From the NCBI GenBank assembly GCA_963724765.1, contig CAVRVY010000001.1, forward strand, positions 256,001 to 320,000: a DNA stretch of 64,000 nt, in the 5' to 3' direction. The translations under genes and the position numbers were made by a program. Below the pieces are notes generated by a model. The model was not told the origin of the DNA, searched no databases, and saw nothing but the letters and a program-made list of their open reading frames with translations. Positions 8,087-15,090 of the stretch are shown piece by piece. The stretch comes from an uncultured delta proteobacterium (GTDB lineage: Bacteria; Desulfobacterota; Binatia; Binatales; Binataceae). Within the stretch, counting starts at the first letter, position 1. Each line of letters begins with the position of its first letter.

Positions 8087-8205
8087 TCCCGCGCGTTCGG
8101 GGGAGCGAGGGAGTTCAGTAGATTGTTGCGGCTGGCGCAAGTCCTGTGGGTCGTGATCACTCCGTCCGGCCATCATCAGCGTCTCGTAATACTGAGAGTT
8201 CGAAT

Positions 8206-8228
8206 CGGGAGTATATACTTAACGCAAT
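8206..8228 (+). repeat. Left terminal inverted repeat of the IS1595 element
   Basis: Matches the reverse complement of 14424-14446 at 22/23 nt. Confidence 0.92.
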
Positions 8229-8749
8229 TTCTCGGCCTGACCGTTTTCCCTGACGCCCGCTTCGGATCGATTGGATTCTCTGGGAAAGCGCATGTAAACC
8301 CCGTGCTGTGTTATAGACCCAATGAAAGGGGCTTGATGTTTGAACACAAATCGGAAGATATCCGACAGGCGAGCCTTCAGAATGTCGGCCATTAGAGTCT
8401 TGTTCATGTTGCCGGAAGAAAAGGAGAATTGCTGAATTGCGTGCTTTTTGATCTGGTCAAGTTCCAGGGGCGTGTAGCGTTGCGCTTTATCCTTGGTCAA
8501 TATAATCCAGCATCGTTCTCCGACGAAAGGTAACCAAATTTCGTCATCAACACCTTCTGGGAATTTATCGCGAGGGAAATGGGCGAGATGCCTTTCGTAG
8601 TGAAGGCCCGCAGAATCTAGGACGTCATGAATGGGTCGGCAATCGCTGAAATTTTCGTCTAGATAATAGACGCTCGCATCACGCTGCCGCTGCCGCGCAC
8701 TGAGCTTCCCATCTGACTGCTTCTTCGATCTCTTTTGGCGTCCGCCCAT
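8219..8749 (-). CDS. VapC45-like PIN-domain toxin
   Basis: YYLDENF, DDEIWLPFVGERCWIILTKD PIN acidic motifs; overlaps the 3' end of the DUF433 gene. Confidence 0.82.
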   Translation of the reverse strand: MGGRQKRSKKQSDGKLSARQRQRDASVYYLDENFSDCRPIHDVLDSAGLHYERHLAHFPRDKFPEGVDDEIWLPFVGERCWIILTKDKAQRYTPLELDQIKKHAIQQFSFSSGNMNKTLMADILKARLSDIFRFVFKHQAPFIGSITQHGVYMRFPRESNRSEAGVRENGQAEKLR

Positions 8750-9389
8750 ACTCCTCTGCTAGGTCTTGGATGGATTCCCGCGCATTAAAGCGGGCGGCTA
8801 CCACGGCAGTAGCTATACCAGTGCGGTCGATAACCGAACGACCAAAAGCAATCGTCGGAGCTATGGAAATAATTTTCGGCTCATCTGTATTGATGTTGTA
8901 CACAAAAGGAAAAAACTTGCCGCCGGTCGCAGTCCATTTAATTCTCTGTAGATAAGTGTCTAAAACTTCTTTCATGATGATTTGACCGCCGTGCGTAAGA
9001 TTGATGATTACCTCATTCGTAGTAGCAATAAATAGGTTCATGCCATCCGTGCTAAGAGACGGCTCTAAGAGGGGATGTGGGGATGGTTGGATTTTGGCTA
9101 GCATTTCTAATGACTTACGCACCGCTAAAATCTGCATTTCGTGTGTTGTTCGAAGAGATTGCAGCACGTGACACTCCAGCAAATTTAAAAAAGAGAGTGT
9201 CGGCGGCTCATAGGTCGGTAGTGTTATCAGGGCGGTCGCGGGCGCGGACTTTTTTCCGATAGCCCAATACCGCAAGGTTTGATAGGGAACGCGGGCATAC
9301 CGCGCTGCGACCGCGAGACTATACGCCGGTGCGTCCAAGATTGGATGCTCCCCGTCGAACGGGCGCTTGAAAATTGACCTTGCCTCCAC
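8679..9389 (-). CDS. DUF433-domain antitoxin (VapB45-like)
   Basis: N-terminal HTH (AARYARVPYQTLRYW), LSFLNLLE, C-terminal PTIAFGRSVIDRTGIAT...GRTPKEIEEAVRWE. Confidence 0.88.
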   Translation of the reverse strand: MEARSIFKRPFDGEHPILDAPAYSLAVAARYARVPYQTLRYWAIGKKSAPATALITLPTYEPPTLSFLNLLECHVLQSLRTTHEMQILAVRKSLEMLAKIQPSPHPLLEPSLSTDGMNLFIATTNEVIINLTHGGQIIMKEVLDTYLQRIKWTATGGKFFPFVYNINTDEPKIISIAPTIAFGRSVIDRTGIATAVVAARFNARESIQDLAEEYGRTPKEIEEAVRWEAQCAAAAA

Positions 9390-9408
9390 AGCCCTGATTG
9401 TATATCAT
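9380..9408 (+). promoter_or_regulatory. Putative sigma70 promoter for the tRNA-like gene
   Basis: TTGCCT (9380-9385), 17-bp spacer, TATCAT (9403-9408). Confidence 0.4.
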
Positions 9409-9447
9409 TCTTCCCCTTCATTCAGTCAACCAAACCTTTATCGTTTT

Positions 9448-9535
9448 CGCGGCGTGCCGGAAATTGGCAGACGGACCGGTCTTGGATGTCGGCGGGCATA
9501 GTCTCGTGCGGGTTCGACTCCCGCCGCCGCGACCA
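9448..9535 (+). tRNA. Atypical tRNA: UGG (Pro) anticodon on a class II, Leu-like body with a long variable arm
   Basis: Acceptor CGCGGCG/CGCCGCG + ACCA; D arm CCG-GAAATTGGCAGA-CGG; anticodon stem CCGGT/GTCGG with loop CT-TGG-AT; 15-nt variable region; T arm GCGGG-TTCGACT-CCCGC. Confidence 0.9.
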
Positions 9536-9543
9536 TTTTTTAC

Positions 9544-9572
9544 TTGACACAAGTATCATGATAGAGTAGAGT
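9544..9572 (+). promoter_or_regulatory. Sigma70 promoter of the transposase (probably a leaderless transcript)
   Basis: TTGACA (9544-9549), 17 bp, TAGAGT (9567-9572), 6 nt, ATG 9579; no Shine-Dalgarno sequence. Confidence 0.7.
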
Positions 9573-9578
9573 TACATC

Positions 9579-10610
9579 ATGGCAAAGGGGCAAAGAAAAG
9601 CGGGGTCTGATAAGTCGGCCATCGTGGCCGCGCTGCCAAAGGCCTGCGCTGATGAACCAGCGGCGGTCGAGTTCATCGAATCATTGCGGTGGGGCGTGAC
9701 GGGCCCGTGCTGCCTGCATTGCGGCGACACCGATGTTTACAAAATGACAGACCGCAAGACTGGCCAGCGCAACAGGCGCTTTCTGTGGAAGTGTAACGGC
9801 TGCCAGAAGCAATACACCGTTCGCGTTGGCACCGTGATGGAAGATAGCCGAATTCCGCTGCGCCATTGGGCATACGCGCTGTGGAAATCCTGTTCATCGA
9901 AGAAGGGCGTCAGCGCGTTGCAGATCAAGCGCGAGACCGGACTGACCTATAAATCGGCGCTGTTCATGATGCATCGCATCCGCTTCGGTATGGCCGAAGA
10001 TTGGACCGGGCAACCCAAGCTGAGCGGGACCGTGGAAGCCGATGAAACCTACGTCGGCGGCAAGCCGCGAAACAAGCATCCGCAAGGGCGACCGGGACCA
10101 CGAAAGGGTTGGCAGGATAAAAAGACTGCGGTGGCCGCATTAGTTGAGCGTGGTGGCAAGATCCGCTCATTCGTCACTGTGAACGTGACTGCCGCGAACG
10201 TGGGTAAGATTCTCCAAGAGAACGTAACAACGGATTCGCACCTGATGACTGACAGCTCTCCGATCTACCGCAGCGGAATCGGAAAGCCATTTGCGAGCCA
10301 CGGCATGACCGACCATTCCAAGGGCGAGTACGCGAAGCCGGATGGCACACACAGCAATACGGTTGAATCCGCCTTCTCATTGCTCAAGCGCGGCATCTAT
10401 GGAACTTTCCACAACGTCAGCCGCAAACATTTGCATCGTTACGTCGCCGAGTTTGATTTCCGCTGGAACGCGCGAAAAGTGGACGATGGCGAGCGATTGG
10501 CGCGCGCGATCCGAAGCGCGGAAGGTAAGCGGCTGCGGTACAAGGAACCATTGGCGACTTTGCCTCCGACCCCCGCACAAGGCAGACCATTTGAAACATT
10601 GCGCGGATAA
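9579..10610 (+). CDS. IS1595-family DDE transposase
   Basis: Zn ribbon CLHCG...CNGC, KKGVSALQIKRE HTH, VEADETY, MTDSSPIY, HSNTVES, YVAEFDFRWN. Confidence 0.95.
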   Translation: MAKGQRKAGSDKSAIVAALPKACADEPAAVEFIESLRWGVTGPCCLHCGDTDVYKMTDRKTGQRNRRFLWKCNGCQKQYTVRVGTVMEDSRIPLRHWAYALWKSCSSKKGVSALQIKRETGLTYKSALFMMHRIRFGMAEDWTGQPKLSGTVEADETYVGGKPRNKHPQGRPGPRKGWQDKKTAVAALVERGGKIRSFVTVNVTAANVGKILQENVTTDSHLMTDSSPIYRSGIGKPFASHGMTDHSKGEYAKPDGTHSNTVESAFSLLKRGIYGTFHNVSRKHLHRYVAEFDFRWNARKVDDGERLARAIRSAEGKRLRYKEPLATLPPTPAQGRPFETLRG

Positions 10611-10627
10611 GCTGTCGAGCCAACAGG

Positions 10628-13600
10628 ATGAGTAAGACAATCGACCAAGGCAAAGAAGAAATTGCGGCGCTCTGCCGATACTTCACTACTAACCGGCGGG
10701 AGTTTAACCCCGGAGCCAAAGAAGCCCACATCCGTCAAACATTGATCGACCCTTTCTTTGAAGCCCTAGGCTGGGATGTCCGTAACAAGACAATGGCTGC
10801 GCCTCAGTACCGGGAAGTCATTCCCGAGGACAGCCTAGACGTGGAAGGGCAACAAAAGGCCCCGGATTATACCTTCCGCGTCGGCACCTTGCCGAAGTTT
10901 TACGTCGAAGCCAAGAAGTGCGGTGTCAATATCGGTGCGGACTCGGGTCCGGCCTTCCAGCTTCGTCGATATGGATGGAGCGCCAAACTCGGGTTGTCCG
11001 TTCTCACCAACTTTGAGGAACTCGCCATTTACGATTGCACCGCCCGCCCGCGTCAGAGCGACAAAGCGAGCAATGCGAGAATCCAGTTCTTCCGCTACGA
11101 CGAATATCCCGACCGTTGGCGTGAATTGTGGGACCTGTTTTCCCGCGAAGCGGTCTGGTCCGGGGCGTTTGACCAGTACGTCGCGTCCAAGCGGAAACGT
11201 GGTACGTCCGAAGTAGATGCGGAGTTTTTGAAAGAAATGGAGAGCTGGCGGCTCGCGCTGGCCGGAAATATCGCCCTTCGAAACAAAAACCTGTCTTTGG
11301 ACGATCTGAACGCTGCAGTGCAACTCACGATTGACAGGGTGGTATTCCTTCGCATGGCGGAAGACCGAGGGCTAGAGCCTTACGAGCAACTTCTGAAGCT
11401 CTGCGAACGGCCCGGCATTTACCCGCGCTTCATTCGCGGTATATGCCGCAGGGCTGACCAAAAGTACAACTCTGGGCTGTTCCATTTCCAGAAGGAAAGC
11501 GGGGTATCCGAAGACCCCGACCGGATCACGCCGAAGCTGGCGACGGATGACAAGATTTTCAAGCCGATCCTTGAAAGCCTGTATTTCTCCCACGGCTCGC
11601 CCTATCACTTCGGTGTTCTACCCGTCGAAATCCTTGGAACCGTCTATGAACGGTTCTTGGGCAAGGTGATCCGGTTAACGGCAGGCCACCACGCAAGGAT
11701 TGAAGAAAAACCTGAAGTGCGCAAAGCCGGTGGCGTCTACTACACACCAGCTTACATTGTCGATTACATCGTCAAGCACACCGTCGCCGCGCAGATTGAA
11801 GGGCGAAGTCCCACACAACTGGCCGGGGAAAAGGACAGAGCGCCTTTCCGTGTCTTGGACATGGCTTGCGGAAGTGGATCGTTCCTGTTGAGTGCCTATC
11901 GGTGCCTTCTGGACTACTGCCTGAATTGGTACATCGAACACAAGCCGGACAACTTTAGGAAGGCCGTTTACAAGGACCCCCGCAACGGTCAATGGAGACT
12001 CAAGATAGAGGAAAAGAAACGGATTCTTACGACGCATATCTTCGGCGTGGACATCGACCTTCAGGCCGTGGAAGTATCTAAGCTGTCTCTGTTGCTGAAG
12101 GTGTTGGAAGGCGAAACGGATCAGAGTCTGTCTTTGAGCCAGCTTCCCTTTGGCGACCGCGCCCTGCCTAATCTGGCAGACAACATTAAGTGCGGCAATT
12201 CTCTAATCGGCCCGGATTATTTCACCGACAAGCTGTTTCTCGACCCCGAGGAAATGAAGCGGGTCAATCCGCTTGACTGGAAACAGCGCTTCCCCGATAC
12301 GATAAAGAGTGGAGGCTTTGATTGTATCATCGGCAACCCGCCGTACCTAAAAATTGAACATATTGTCGAAGGTGACCGGAAATATTTTTCGCTAGGCTTC
12401 GCCTCCTTCATGAAGAGATACGACACCTACGGGCTATTCGTCGAGCGTTCGCTTGTCCTTCTCAAGCCAAAGGGCCTGTTCGGCATGATTATTCCTTCGA
12501 CGATTTTGAACAACCTTAGCTTCAGCCAGCTTCGTAAGATGCTGGTCGAATTAACGTCCATCTCTTCGATAGTCAATTTGGGCGGAAAGGTCTTCCAAGG
12601 AGTAAACAACGATACCGTCATCTTGACTTTCGCAAAGGGAAAGGACCCCGTCGGCACAACGCAGATTCTCGACGTGCAGAAGTATGGTGGCGGGTTGGCA
12701 ACAGCGGCAGCTATCGGTACGAAGGATTTGTCTCGCGCGGCGGCGCCCCCGCAATATGTGTTTGAACTACGCATGTCGAAGGCGGCAGACTCCATCCTCG
12801 CTAAAATGCGCAGCGGCGGTCTGGCTCTTGGTGAAATCTGCTCATGCTTTCAAGGCTTCGTTACTGGGGGGAATGATGCCTACATTGTGGACTCAAAAAG
12901 TATCCGCGACGAAAACCTCGAAAAAGAGGTGTGCAAACCCGCTGTCTTTGGCGACCAAGTGTCCCGCTACGGCAGGCCGAGCCCCCAAGGATTCGTCATT
13001 TACCTGACCAGAGACAGCAATCTGGATGAATTTCCCAACATTAAGGCAAGGCTTGAACCTCACAAGGCCAACCTCAAAACGAAGCGAGAAGTGAAACTAG
13101 GAAGGCAGCCGTGGTACTCGCTGCACTGGCCTCGCGTTCAAGAAAATTTTGAACGTTCCCCGAAGATTTTGGTACAAGCAATAAGAAACTTAGCATTGAA
13201 AAGACGGATAATCGCCACGCTGGACTCTCGAGGTCTCTACGCCGATCACACGCTTAACGTGCTGTACACGGAGCATCAAGAATATGACATTATATTCGTG
13301 CTGGGTATTCTGAATTCCGCGCTTGTGAATTTCCTGTTCTCGAAGAAGTATATCGACATCAACATCAAAGGCGTGTATCTTACCGAGGCCCCCATTCCCA
13401 GAATTAACTTCTCTGCTCCTGCCGACAGAAAACGCCATGACCAAATGGTAACGCTGGTTAATTCGATACTCGGATTGCACAACGAAGTGGCCGAGACGAA
13501 GTCCGCCGCACAAAAGGCCATCCTTCAGCGCCAGATTGATTCGACGGACGCCGAGATCGACCGGCTCGTATATGATCTGTACGGCCTGACGGCTGAAGAG

Positions 13601-13657
13601 ATCGCGACAGTGGAAGGAGCAACCGCGAGCGTCAACCGAGTGAGCGTCCAAGAATGA
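10628..13657 (+). CDS. Type IIG (Eco57I-like) restriction endonuclease-N6-adenine methyltransferase fusion
   Basis: N-terminal PDY...VEAKK nuclease motif, GVYYTP, VLDMACGSGSFL (motif I), IIGNPPY (motif IV), TaqI-C-like TRD and EIDRLVYDLYGLT tail. Confidence 0.92.
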   Translation: MSKTIDQGKEEIAALCRYFTTNRREFNPGAKEAHIRQTLIDPFFEALGWDVRNKTMAAPQYREVIPEDSLDVEGQQKAPDYTFRVGTLPKFYVEAKKCGVNIGADSGPAFQLRRYGWSAKLGLSVLTNFEELAIYDCTARPRQSDKASNARIQFFRYDEYPDRWRELWDLFSREAVWSGAFDQYVASKRKRGTSEVDAEFLKEMESWRLALAGNIALRNKNLSLDDLNAAVQLTIDRVVFLRMAEDRGLEPYEQLLKLCERPGIYPRFIRGICRRADQKYNSGLFHFQKESGVSEDPDRITPKLATDDKIFKPILESLYFSHGSPYHFGVLPVEILGTVYERFLGKVIRLTAGHHARIEEKPEVRKAGGVYYTPAYIVDYIVKHTVAAQIEGRSPTQLAGEKDRAPFRVLDMACGSGSFLLSAYRCLLDYCLNWYIEHKPDNFRKAVYKDPRNGQWRLKIEEKKRILTTHIFGVDIDLQAVEVSKLSLLLKVLEGETDQSLSLSQLPFGDRALPNLADNIKCGNSLIGPDYFTDKLFLDPEEMKRVNPLDWKQRFPDTIKSGGFDCIIGNPPYLKIEHIVEGDRKYFSLGFASFMKRYDTYGLFVERSLVLLKPKGLFGMIIPSTILNNLSFSQLRKMLVELTSISSIVNLGGKVFQGVNNDTVILTFAKGKDPVGTTQILDVQKYGGGLATAAAIGTKDLSRAAAPPQYVFELRMSKAADSILAKMRSGGLALGEICSCFQGFVTGGNDAYIVDSKSIRDENLEKEVCKPAVFGDQVSRYGRPSPQGFVIYLTRDSNLDEFPNIKARLEPHKANLKTKREVKLGRQPWYSLHWPRVQENFERSPKILVQAIRNLALKRRIIATLDSRGLYADHTLNVLYTEHQEYDIIFVLGILNSALVNFLFSKKYIDINIKGVYLTEAPIPRINFSAPADRKRHDQMVTLVNSILGLHNEVAETKSAAQKAILQRQIDSTDAEIDRLVYDLYGLTAEEIATVEGATASVNRVSVQE

Positions 13658-13806
13658 CCAAGAAGCAGAAGACCGAGCGAAAGCCTCCCGGCCCCGCACC
13701 CGAAGTGCTGAAAATCGAGGGCGACTGGAAAGACGCCATGAAACAGCTGATTTCCAAGAAGCGCCCAGTCGGTGGTCGGCCCAAGATCGAAAAGAAACGC
13801 GGCTGA
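13654..13806 (+). CDS. Small basic hypothetical protein (50 aa, not in the ORF track)
   Basis: ATGA overlap with the RM stop; MTKKQKTERKPPGPAPEVLKIEGDWKDAMKQLISKKRP... Confidence 0.6.
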   Translation: MTKKQKTERKPPGPAPEVLKIEGDWKDAMKQLISKKRPVGGRPKIEKKRG

Positions 13807-13837
13807 ACGATCGTCCCCAACACAGGAGGCACGAACG

Positions 13838-14011
13838 ATGGCCAAGGTAGCCTCGTATCATACGAACTCGATGGAGTATCCGCCCAGCCACCGGAACGTT
13901 TACCACGATCACGACGATTGCCCATATGGGAAGCGCATTAAGCCACAACACCTCATTCGCAACTCGACCGGGGGCAAGCCGCGCTGCGATGAGTGCATCA
14001 AGCTGGGCTAA
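13838..14011 (+). CDS. Small His/Cys-rich putative zinc-binding protein (57 aa)
   Basis: RBS AGGAGG; VYHDHDDC...RCDEC. Confidence 0.7.
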   Translation: MAKVASYHTNSMEYPPSHRNVYHDHDDCPYGKRIKPQHLIRNSTGGKPRCDECIKLG

Positions 14012-14373
14012 TTGCGTGCTCTAAATACGATTTCCCAATGCGGTCCGTTCGGCTCGTTGCCGTCCAGTATGGACCAGATGCGCCGCAGGAACAGGATCGG
14101 CAGCCCGTAGGCTAGGCAGACACCGACAGCGCGCCAGCCCGCTTCGGGCGTTCCGTAAAACCTGACGCTCGGCTCTGGGTAGGAGTGCCCCGGGCCGCCT
14201 TCGCAGGACTCGAACGTTTCGATCCCTTCGGCTTGGAGCCGTTCGACGGCTTTGCGGATGCCGGGATCTAGCCCTCGAAGGTCGCCGTTCAGCCATGCCG
14301 GTGGATGCTGATCTGTAGGCAGCGGCGACGCTTTCCAAAGCTTACCGCGTTTCGATTTCTTGTTTTTCGACAT
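14008..14373 (-). CDS. Hypothetical protein with a LDPGI...GIETFESCEG motif
   Basis: 121-aa ORF just inside the right end of the element, converging on the small Zn protein. Confidence 0.7.
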   Translation of the reverse strand: MSKNKKSKRGKLWKASPLPTDQHPPAWLNGDLRGLDPGIRKAVERLQAEGIETFESCEGGPGHSYPEPSVRFYGTPEAGWRAVGVCLAYGLPILFLRRIWSILDGNEPNGPHWEIVFRARN

Positions 14374-14423
14374 CGGAGATTCAATTAGGCCGACTTAACG
14401 ATGTATTAGTGAGACTTTCGGGG

Positions 14424-14446
14424 ATTGCGTTAAGTACATACTCCCG
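14424..14446 (-). repeat. Right terminal inverted repeat of the IS1595 element
   Basis: attgcgttaagtacatactcccg, followed by the target duplication GTTAGAAT (14447-14454). Confidence 0.92.
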
Positions 14447-15090
14447 GTTAGAATTCATCCCGCTCCGCCACGCAGTCCCAGATTTGATGATTCTCCGGGC
14501 ATAACCGCAAAAAGCGCGCGTGTGGGGGGGGCGATGCGCCCGCCCACCGACACCGGAGAGAGCTCAGATGTCGAATTATGCCGCGTCGCTTCGATTTTCT
14601 CTCTGTAGGCGAGGAATTCGGTGCCGATGCCCTGGGTGAACACATTACACGATAGAAATCTGCGGACATCGCGAGCGGTGAATTTCATGACGCCAAGCGC
14701 CCTGCGCGGGCATCCGCGCATGGATTTGCAGCTGCGGCCGCTTGCCGCAACTGAGGCAACAGCAGCTAATGGCGAAGAGTGACGACTTCCAGTTCCGGGT
14801 CCACCCGGTTCCGGAGCCGGCAGGTCAGCAAAAGAACCGATCGCAGACATGAGCGCGGTGGAGTCCCGCCAGAAGCCGGGACTGGCGTGCAATCAGTTGG
14901 ACAGGTCGGAAATTCGGCGCATCCTTGCTCAGGGAGAGCTCGTTCGAACGTGTTTATAGGAAGCCGTATACGCCTCGAGGATTCGGCGCAGGCGCAATTC
15001 GCCGAACACGGTGAAGTGATGCAGGCACTCTCGGTTACATTTAGGTAACAAAGCAACCTTCCTCAAAGGAGAGGACACGCATATGCCCCT

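Follow-up and report, generated by a model that had tools for sequence, protein, structure and literature searches.

An IS1595-family transporter insertion sequence with a conserved core tRNA that combines a leucine-like body with a proline anticodon

A stretch of 64,000 nucleotides from an uncultured delta proteobacterium of the Binataceae (assembly GCA_963724765.1, contig CAVRVY010000001.1, positions 256,001 to 320,000), referred to here as the window, contains an intact transporter insertion sequence (tIS) of the IS1595 family at 8206-14446 (6,241 bp). As a tIS the element is ordinary; what is new is that it holds a conserved tRNA whose body and anticodon are mismatched, together with a conserved small protein of 50 amino acids. 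The tRNA gene (9448..9535, + strand) encodes an 88-nt class II tRNA with the anticodon UGG, identified by ARAGORN, by covariation within its family and by a covariance model, R1. Its body is leucine-like and its anticodon is not, and it belongs to the core of the element and not to the cargo. The reading favoured here, to which we give a little less than an even chance, is that this core tRNA is expressed, can be charged by leucyl-tRNA synthetase (LeuRS) and reads proline codons. By definition, an insertion sequence carries nothing beyond what its movement needs, and transporter insertion sequences add cargo to this. A tRNA that is kept with the transposase over phylum-scale distances, with an anticodon that never fits its body, is neither a movement gene nor cargo.

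A tRNA and a small protein conserved with the transposase

The transposase, a protein of 343 amino acids encoded at 9579..10610 (+), consists of an N-terminal Zn ribbon (Pfam PF12760, E 1e-08, residues 25-78) and a DDE_Tnp_IS1595 domain (Pfam PF12762, E 1.4e-37; NCBIfam NF033547, 186 bits against a cut-off of 75). The nearest ISfinder groups are presumably ISNha5 or ISNwi1. When 185,579 species genomes were searched with the transposase, 46 loci (L048-L093) were recovered, and a metagenome scan with a transposase alignment gave at least 579 relatives, from which 80 loci were kept, for a total of 126 loci examined. The closest transposases, at 70-87% identity, are from Candidatus Binataceae and "delta proteobacterium" metagenome-assembled genomes (MAGs), while those at 43-55% identity are found in Planctomycetota, Verrucomicrobiota, Acidobacteriota and Myxococcota. 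At the DNA level, the stretch comprising the tRNA and the transposase is matched in six of 60 related genomes, all of the same taxonomic family and at no more than 75% identity. Plasmid-borne IS1595 transposases are at most 45% identical to that of the window, and in the two plasmid examples examined (L175 and L176) neither the tRNA nor the open reading frame (ORF) of the 50-amino-acid protein is present. The same genome has 15 other IS1595-family matches, which are 32-41% identical, and R1 found no match in the nine loci of these copies that were examined.

Seventeen elements, including that of the window, could be delimited. They share a family of terminal inverted repeats (IRs), CGGRAnTATrTACTT, and range in size from 2,205 to 7,622 bp. 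Their 8-bp target site duplications (TSDs) are identical at all eight positions in 14 cases, at seven in two and at six in one, and the targets are AT-rich 8-mers unrelated to one another. Two elements, L054 4979-7433 (2,455 bp) and L095 1904-6226 (4,323 bp), have the identical 8-bp TSD GATTCTTC, which may reflect a common target or coincidence.

The odd tRNA adjoins related transposases in 52 of the 126 loci, spread over several phyla. ARAGORN reports a long "tRNA-Pro" in 16 of the 46 genome loci, and R1 exceeds 65 bits in 19 of them; of the 80 metagenome loci, 33 score at least 61.6 bits, with confirmation by ARAGORN. Where the transposase match is full length and at least 1.5 kb is available on either side, the tRNA is found in 29 of 53 loci. 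It is located within the IRs of 14 of the 17 delimited elements, and tRNA-bearing minimal elements without recognisable cargo are among the relatives (L053, 2,205 bp; L158, 2,449 bp; L051; L054). Three different arrangements of the tRNA with respect to its neighbours are seen; in the clade of the window element, 44-145 nt separate it from the transposase gene downstream.

In a quick maximum-likelihood tree of 104 transposases, anticodon class follows the transposase clades, and anticodon positions 35-36 are fixed within them. All 12 rows with UGC fall into one 16-row clade (support 100), the other four rows of which have too little flank for a judgement. The 16-row clade of the window element (support 100) comprises 13 rows with UGG, two of unjudged status and one without a tRNA, and a Pyrinomonadales clade is made up of four of the six AGG rows. 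More generally, similarity between the tRNAs tracks similarity between the transposases (Mantel r = 0.36, with none of 999 permutations as high).

The family also shares a fold. In a cloverleaf alignment of 15 of its tRNAs, which includes a 4-bp stem in the variable arm, 98.6% of cells are paired, compared with 40-49% in slid-alignment controls; changes on both sides are seen in 20 of the 24 pairs, and none of 500 shuffles reaches the observed values. Both the consensus and the window copy have a 7-bp acceptor stem and a 5-bp T stem, and covariation is accompanied by a 7-nt anticodon loop and a consensus T loop. Feature counts extend to 53 tRNAs of the family. Of these, 51 have A73 and 52 an anticodon loop of 7 nt, position 37 is a purine in 52 of 52, and the variable arm is hypervariable (13-42 nt). 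In one family member (L057 8488-8597, - strand) the anticodon loop is 32 nt long through an insert of about 29 nt. The anticodons are UGG (33), UGC (12), AGG (6) and UUA (1), and neither a leucine, serine or tyrosine anticodon nor a G3:U70 pair occurs in any of the 53. The tRNA is clearly a selected, folded RNA, with selection acting both on the fold and on the retention of an anticodon other than leucine.

The first-pass annotation of this DNA had treated the tRNA as one passenger among several. Because it is kept with its transposase clade across phyla, and is found inside the IRs of minimal elements that lack cargo, it is instead assigned to the core. The view implied there, that the gene was acquired once, as a passenger by chance or as a pseudogene now in decay, can appeal to its absence from some close relatives (L049) and to scores below the Rfam thresholds. 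It is contradicted by the covariation and by the distribution, with compensatory changes in most pairs, clade-specific anticodon classes and an occurrence beside transposases down to about 43% identity, and we regard it as highly improbable.

The second conserved component is a Lys/Arg-rich protein of 50 amino acids (13654..13806, +), with the motif GP.PE.LKIEG.WK.A...KK.P..GWPK. The first-pass annotation mentioned small ORFs, but overlooked this one; it was revealed by whole-element comparison, as a conserved stretch following the restriction-modification (RM) genes, and its ATG overlaps the RM stop codon in the window. Matches in relatives, detected by tblastn and a hidden Markov model (HMM), mark it as a clade-conserved accessory. 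The HMM finds it in 58 of the 126 loci, all within that half of the tree to which the window element belongs, and both minimal and tRNA-less elements are among the carriers. In the 53 loci with adequate flanks, both parts are present in 19, the ORF alone in 13, the tRNA alone in 10 and neither in 11. In at least nine loci of the UGC type, the ORF begins 30-55 nt downstream of the tRNA on the same strand. Pfam, NCBIfam, PADLOC and the ESM Atlas offer no named family for this protein. Its 932 database clusters, the best 120 of which are all unnamed or "hypothetical", make it a new and very common insertion sequence-associated family without a name. The core shared within this clade consists of the IRs and the transposase, the 50-amino-acid basic protein and a class II tRNA whose anticodon is not one for leucine.

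Identity of the tRNA and its possible roles

ARAGORN calls the window tRNA tRNA-Pro(UGG), and the first-pass annotation took it to be an ordinary tRNA. The same genome also encodes a normal tRNA-Pro(UGG) of 75 nt. The window copy has a 7-bp acceptor stem with C1-G72, A73, an encoded CCA, a 3-bp D stem, the anticodon loop CUUGGAU and a variable region of about 15 nt with a 4-bp stem. Of these, the class II shape, the 3-bp D stem, the leucine-type D arm and A73 are traits of tRNA-Leu. R1 gives it 79.4 bits, compared with 73.6-79.1 for five tRNA-Leu of the host, 43.5-56.6 for host tRNA-Ser and 39.4-56.0 for host tRNA-Pro; in three other hosts, the element tRNA ranks first by R1 and is followed by five or six untyped matches at 73-83 bits. 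The D, variable and T arms are therefore leucine-like, whereas the acceptor stem (CGCGGCG, with C1-G72 and A73) resembles that of the host tRNA-Pro (CGGGGCG). UGG, A73 and C1-G72 are traits of tRNA-Pro as well; the class I body with a short variable loop is absent.

If the favoured reading is correct, the tRNA would be transcribed, undergo tRNA-like processing, with its CCA encoded, and then be aminoacylated. A promoter-like site, TTGCCT-17-TATCAT, is located 40 nt upstream of the tRNA (9380..9408, +; a consensus match only, 9/12), and no conserved promoter was found upstream of the tRNA among seven elements compared. A second such site, TTGACA-17-TAGAGT, precedes the transposase (9544..9572, +; again a consensus match only, 10/12). 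The tRNA agrees with host tRNA-Leu in its three arms (D, variable and T) and in A73, and LeuRS ignores the anticodon, so that the tRNA is most likely a substrate of LeuRS that would read CCN proline codons, making it a naturally mobile missense tRNA. A73 is named as a LeuRS determinant in PMC2377443, and LeuRS, alanyl-tRNA synthetase (AlaRS) and seryl-tRNA synthetase (SerRS) are listed in PMC11028032 as enzymes that do not read the anticodon. According to the latter source, tRNA-Leu variants with proline or alanine anticodons strongly reduce yeast growth and are among the most harmful.

A more far-reaching version can be envisaged, in which a widespread, mobile IS1595 subgroup spreads leucine-charged, mismatched tRNAs with proline, alanine and ochre anticodons that misread GC-rich codons, which are abundant. 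The 50-amino-acid protein would be their partner, as an antidote or in delivery, and the whole might act as an addiction system resembling an RNA toxin, or as a stress or anti-phage device. We consider this extension doubtful, although worth stating.

The same features of the window copy permit a different assignment. C1-G72, A73 and an NGG anticodon are identity features of bacterial tRNA-Pro for prolyl-tRNA synthetase (ProRS), and ProRS might also accept this copy by way of its acceptor end (C1-G72/A73) and its G35-G36 anticodon. It may be that the molecule is a true tRNA-Pro in class II shape, charged by ProRS through G35, G36 and A73 (and, here, C1-G72), which decodes CCN correctly and would supply extra or nuclease-resistant tRNA-Pro to any host that the element enters. 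The closeness of the acceptor stem to that of host tRNA-Pro is in keeping with this, as is G35-G36 in all 39 members of proline type, 11 of which have C1-G72. However, the remaining 28 have G1-C72, the body scores as tRNA-Leu and not as tRNA-Pro, and there are members with UUA. The classical rule for AlaRS is that cognate charging with alanine needs G3:U70, and under that rule the 12 UGC members, which lack this pair, could not be charged cognately. Furthermore, a harmless spare tRNA leaves the lack of any leucine anticodon unexplained. On this balance, charging with proline appears unlikely for the family, if a serious contender for the window copy.

Several observations count against a leucine-charged core tRNA. 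C1-G72, found in 12 of the 53 tRNAs including the window copy and a hallmark of tRNA-Pro, fits proline charging without mistranslation. The window tRNA fails the gathering score of the Rfam tRNA model; its best match in the clan is to the tmRNA ends, at 24.8 bits against a gathering score of 47, with the tRNA model lower. Single-sequence folding is no better than that of shuffled sequences (z = -0.26), a result that is uninformative. C33 replaces U33 in eight of 52 members. The tRNA is absent from 24 of the 53 loci with adequate flanks and from three of the 17 delimited elements, namely L122, L120 and L049, the last being the closest relative (87% identity); the existence of such elements indicates that transposition does not need the tRNA. 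The transposase genes give no sign of needing recoding. Finally, a constitutive proline-to-leucine misreader should be costly to its host, and no benefit to the element has been identified.

A dependence of the transposase on recoding by the tRNA was considered and rejected: there is no proline column (alanine in the UGC clade) at which the relatives keep leucine. Conserved leucine, proline and alanine columns are shared, with weak cases only at residue 324 of the window protein and at residue 216.

It may also be that the tRNA shape serves a purpose outside decoding. The RNA might divert anticodon nucleases or modification enzymes by serving as their decoy or sponge, it might occupy the A site uncharged and so set off the stringent response, or it might be a module for RNase P/Z processing or stability of the adjacent mRNA, possibly together with the 50-amino-acid protein. 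A purpose of this kind is suggested by the short distance between the tRNA and the gene that follows it, both in the window clade, where this is the transposase, and in at least nine alanine-type loci, where it is the 50-amino-acid ORF. The members with C33 point in the same direction, and irregular tRNAs of soil bacteria, encoded near toxin-antitoxin (TA) or transposon genes, are described in PMC5389517 as charged but unused in E. coli translation. However, the neighbours of the tRNA are arranged in three different ways, and 10 of the 53 loci have the tRNA without the small protein while 13 have the small protein without the tRNA. In addition, features that matter to a decoding tRNA are all kept, including the acceptor stem, A73, the 7-nt loop, the purine at position 37 and the T loop, and anticodon positions 35-36 are fixed within clades. 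A role apart from translation is thus rather unlikely, and not the one we would choose.

A structured, element-encoded RNA adjoining a transposase gene, with a hypervariable variable arm, also brings to mind a guide RNA that steers the transposase to its targets or ends, like the IS110 bridge RNA or the omega RNA of IS200/605. The longest complementarity of the anticodon and variable arms to the IRs, the flanks or the start of the transposase is no greater than chance predicts in 12 of the 13 elements, and the match in the thirteenth is an identity in the same sense. Moreover, the 17 TSDs are unrelated AT-rich 8-mers, and the tRNA-less elements L049, L122 and L120 still have perfect TSDs. A guide function is accordingly very hard to credit.

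Relation to known systems

The element agrees with what has been described for IS1595 tIS in the possession of a transposase with Zn-ribbon and DDE_Tnp_IS1595 domains, IRs, an 8-bp TSD and passengers inside the IRs. PMC8101967 lists the transposase domains, IRs and 8-bp TSD as traits of the family, with the Zn ribbon present in all groups except IS1016, and a TnCentral preprint restricts the tIS definition to IS1595 and IS66 and reports the carriage of cargo. The statement in the first-pass annotation that IS1595 elements make 8-bp duplications and that some bear passengers is in agreement with this. The difference here is that a tRNA and a 50-amino-acid protein are conserved with the transposase; neither is mentioned in the literature searched, and the transposase is at most 87% identical to that of any relative among the loci fetched. 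That literature contains no paper linking IS1595 with a tRNA, although supplements, ISfinder and TnPedia fell outside its scope, so that an earlier cataloguing is possible.

The nearest precedents for the tRNA itself are the allo-tRNAs and irregular tRNA polycistrons that soil and peat bacteria encode close to TA or transposon genes (PMC5389517; reviewed in PMC7609411). These accounts likewise describe odd tRNAs with an anticodon unfit for their identity, in the same habitats and near the same kinds of gene. However, allo-tRNAs have 8/4 or 9/3 acceptor/T stems and are serine-like, whereas the tRNAs described here have 7/5 stems, a leucine-like body and A73, and membership in that group was rejected on the stem lengths. 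The main text of PMC5389517, supplements aside, contains no UGG, LeuRS, tRNALeu or IS1595. Mistranslating tRNA-Leu variants (Davey-Young et al. 2024, PMC11028032) similarly combine a leucine-type class II body with a foreign anticodon. Those variants and the nematode V-arm tRNAs are eukaryotic, or else rare or engineered, whereas the present family is conserved, bacterial and borne on an insertion sequence.

Mobile elements that carry their own tRNA genes are familiar among phages, integrative and conjugative elements and plasmids, but those tRNAs are mostly cognate and reside on large elements; here a single, non-cognate-looking tRNA can be found on an insertion sequence of 2.2 kb. Nematode V-arm tRNAs are charged with leucine. 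IS110 bridge RNAs and IS200/IS605 omega RNAs are, like this tRNA, structured non-coding RNAs encoded inside an insertion sequence beside the transposase. They differ from the present case, in which there are a full tRNA cloverleaf, an ordinary DDE enzyme, unspecific AT-rich targets and no guide-like complementarity.

What the tRNA would signify depends on its charging. If it is charged with leucine, the family would be a natural, horizontally mobile source of proline-to-leucine misreading in soil bacteria (alanine-to-leucine in the sister clade), with a bearing on the stability of the genetic code in nature and on the origin of the "irregular tRNAs" of soil metagenomes, and this would be the first transposon to spread a mistranslating tRNA as a core gene of its own. 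If it is charged with proline, it would be a previously undescribed class II tRNA-Pro. The annotation of tRNAs in MAGs is affected as well, since genes of this family are called tRNA-Pro or tRNA-Ala there.

Further tRNA-like genes were observed in and around related loci. Six loci have a second tRNA-like gene in tandem with or near the class II tRNA, as called by ARAGORN: Ala(CGC) at L052 5675-5749, Gly(ACC) at L096 3754-3826, Thr(CGU) at L101 5003-5077, Ala(GGC) at L103 2265-2339, Ile(UAU) at L104 5494-5580 and "Stop"(UUA) at L108 1325-1416. These are reminiscent of the irregular tRNA polycistrons of Mukai et al. At L058 5493-5582 (-), a 90-nt tRNA with the anticodon CAA lies about 400 nt upstream of the transposase, and its acceptor stem and G73 resemble the tRNA-Ser of the genome under study. 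A short UGG tRNA of 71-74 nt adjoins the transposase at L059 6967-7040 (-). Elsewhere in the genome of the window there are a 91-nt "tRNA-Cys(GCA)" whose acceptor stem appears to have 8 bp and whose variable arm is long (C4:64275-64365), and, adjoining a 74-nt "SeC(UCA)" call, a tRNA-Ser-like gene of 95 nt in which the anticodon loop is malformed (C1:1040721-1040913).

Boundaries, target site and cargo of the window element

The description of a complete IS1595 element with 23-bp IRs and an 8-bp duplication containing one mismatch is borne out by the IRs, the TSD, the transposase domains and paralogous empty sites. The IR arms, at 8206..8228 (+; CGGGAGTATATACTTAACGCAAT) and 14424..14446 (-), are complementary at 22 of 23 positions, and the repeat belongs to the family that bounds the 16 other delimited elements. 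A search with the IR pattern through the whole genome (5.4 Mb, four contigs) returned just these two sites and none for the reversed-pattern control; by this measure the element is single-copy. The TSD copies, GTTCGAAT on the left (8198..8205) and GTTAGAAT on the right (14447..14454), are identical at seven of eight positions. The right-hand copy opens a repeat of about 234 bp outside the element (14447..14680, +), the first 24 bases of which resemble a tRNA-Ser 3' end. Copies of this repeat (14447-14680; C1:674361-674661; L029, L033 and L037) are numerous in this genome and its relatives. The five that reach the first base (C1:674593 and C3:132473 in the same genome, and L029, L033 and L037) all read ...GA-GTTCGAAT-YNNNNNCGCTCCGCCA..., with one GTTCGAAT only; three more begin later and are uninformative on the insertion point. 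As paralogous empty sites, these five fix the boundaries at 8206 and 14446.

The first-pass annotation had proposed a search for other copies and for empty sites. No second copy was found and the empty sites recovered are paralogous; none of 40 relatives yielded an orthologous empty site, their flanking genes being non-adjacent and their flanks non-syntenic. The flank genes do share a contig in two of them (G004 and G014), about 67 kb and 345 kb apart. Its description of the flanking genes as broken is only loosely right, as repeated fragments make up the flanks in a mosaic that would fit the end of a decayed integrative element. The repeat copy at C1:674593 lies beside a genuine tRNA-Ser(GCU) (C1:674570-674661) and adjoins genes for a large serine recombinase of 598 amino acids and a DUF2924 protein. 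Given these genes beside the real tRNA-Ser copy, the element appears to be seated in a decayed integrative-element end, and the multiplicity of repeat copies suggests that a serine-recombinase element has integrated at tRNA-Ser and decayed more than once. A DDE enzyme such as this transposase would bind the terminal 23-bp repeats and insert with an 8-bp staggered cut. In the window, the insertion fell within a copy of a tRNA-Ser 3' end, in its T-loop-like part, on the border of that decayed element. Since the targets of the delimited elements are AT-rich and mutually unrelated, this does not amount to a habit of targeting tRNAs.

Parts of the element recur in environmental DNA data; the runs listed for this stretch include no RNA run. 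In four DNA runs from four studies (soil, peat and sediment), short contigs without differences from the window cover parts of the TA pair, the tRNA-transposase stretch, the RM gene and the 121-amino-acid ORF described below. None of the contigs in these runs bridges the joints of the element; they are short, and the parts left uncovered are uninformative. Logan contigs from three runs of three studies (X1, X2 and X3) have zero differences over the region of the 121-amino-acid ORF, and all diverge at 14389, 57 nt short of the end of the IR, continuing into unlike sequence. The right-hand block may be present in another context, or the right end of the window element may be a deletion derivative.

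From left to right, the element contains a PIN_10 ORF, an HTH_66/DUF433 ORF, the tRNA, the transposase, the RM gene and ORFs of 50, 79 and 121 amino acids. The transposase accordingly has passengers on both sides, as first described, and the transposase, RM, PIN_10 and HTH_66/DUF433 frames are all intact. The RM enzyme, the DUF433/PIN_10 pair and the 121-amino-acid ORF lie between the IRs of one insertion sequence, and they are variable cargo, since the cargo differs in every related element.

The RM gene (10628..13657, +) encodes a type IIG enzyme of 1009 amino acids. This assignment in the first-pass annotation is upheld by the order of the Pfam domains (HSDR_N, Eco57I, N6_Mtase and TaqI_C), which place a nuclease, a gamma-class N6-methyltransferase and a TaqI-like specificity domain in sequence on a single polypeptide, and by a nearly full-length match to PADLOC REase_MTase_IIG (E 9e-188, residues 9-994). 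To the left, a PIN-like ORF of 176 amino acids (8219..8749, -; PIN_10, Pfam PF18478, E 4.4e-09), for which PADLOC and NCBIfam have no match, follows an ORF of 236 amino acids (8679..9389, -) with DUF433 (Pfam, E 7e-07) and an HTH_66 match below the cut-off. The two overlap by 71 nt, which makes the true start of the PIN_10 ORF uncertain. What had been called a VapBC-like pair is indeed TA-like, but it is probably not a VapB-type antitoxin with a VapC toxin: by Pfam, the fold of the upstream protein is not of VapB type, and this DUF433/HTH protein is a putative antitoxin-like partner of PIN_10.

At the right-hand end, the ORF of 121 amino acids (14008..14373, -) encodes a conserved hypothetical protein with 623 homologous clusters, none of them named and none with a Pfam family, many being 70-80% identical across the core. 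The 79-amino-acid ORF (13772..14011, +), which overlaps the end of the 50-amino-acid ORF, is an open frame alone and stands unsupported; Pfam, NCBIfam and PADLOC assign it no family, and it does not recur in the 46 genome loci. PADLOC recognises the RM enzyme as the only defence gene of the element. The idea of a compact defence/addiction module consequently fits the cargo, and not the tRNA and the rest of the core.

Cargo is exchanged between elements and probably serves to stabilise or defend its carrier. The cargo proteins of the window were not found in the 46 genome loci, with the lone exception of a 26-amino-acid RM fragment beside a transposase remnant in L075. Other elements carry an N6_N4 methyltransferase-Mrr fusion (L048), a methyltransferase with an ORF without assigned family (L049), a SmaI-like nuclease (L076), a PIN protein (L057), DUF6941 and DUF2442 proteins (L060 and L061) or an Asp-protease/SEC-C protein (L065 and L066). 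In three elements (L049 5147-5962, L056 5135-5965 and L050 829-1548), an ORF of 240-276 amino acids with no Pfam family, 40-45% identical among them, is located just upstream of the transposase and is a possible further accessory gene.

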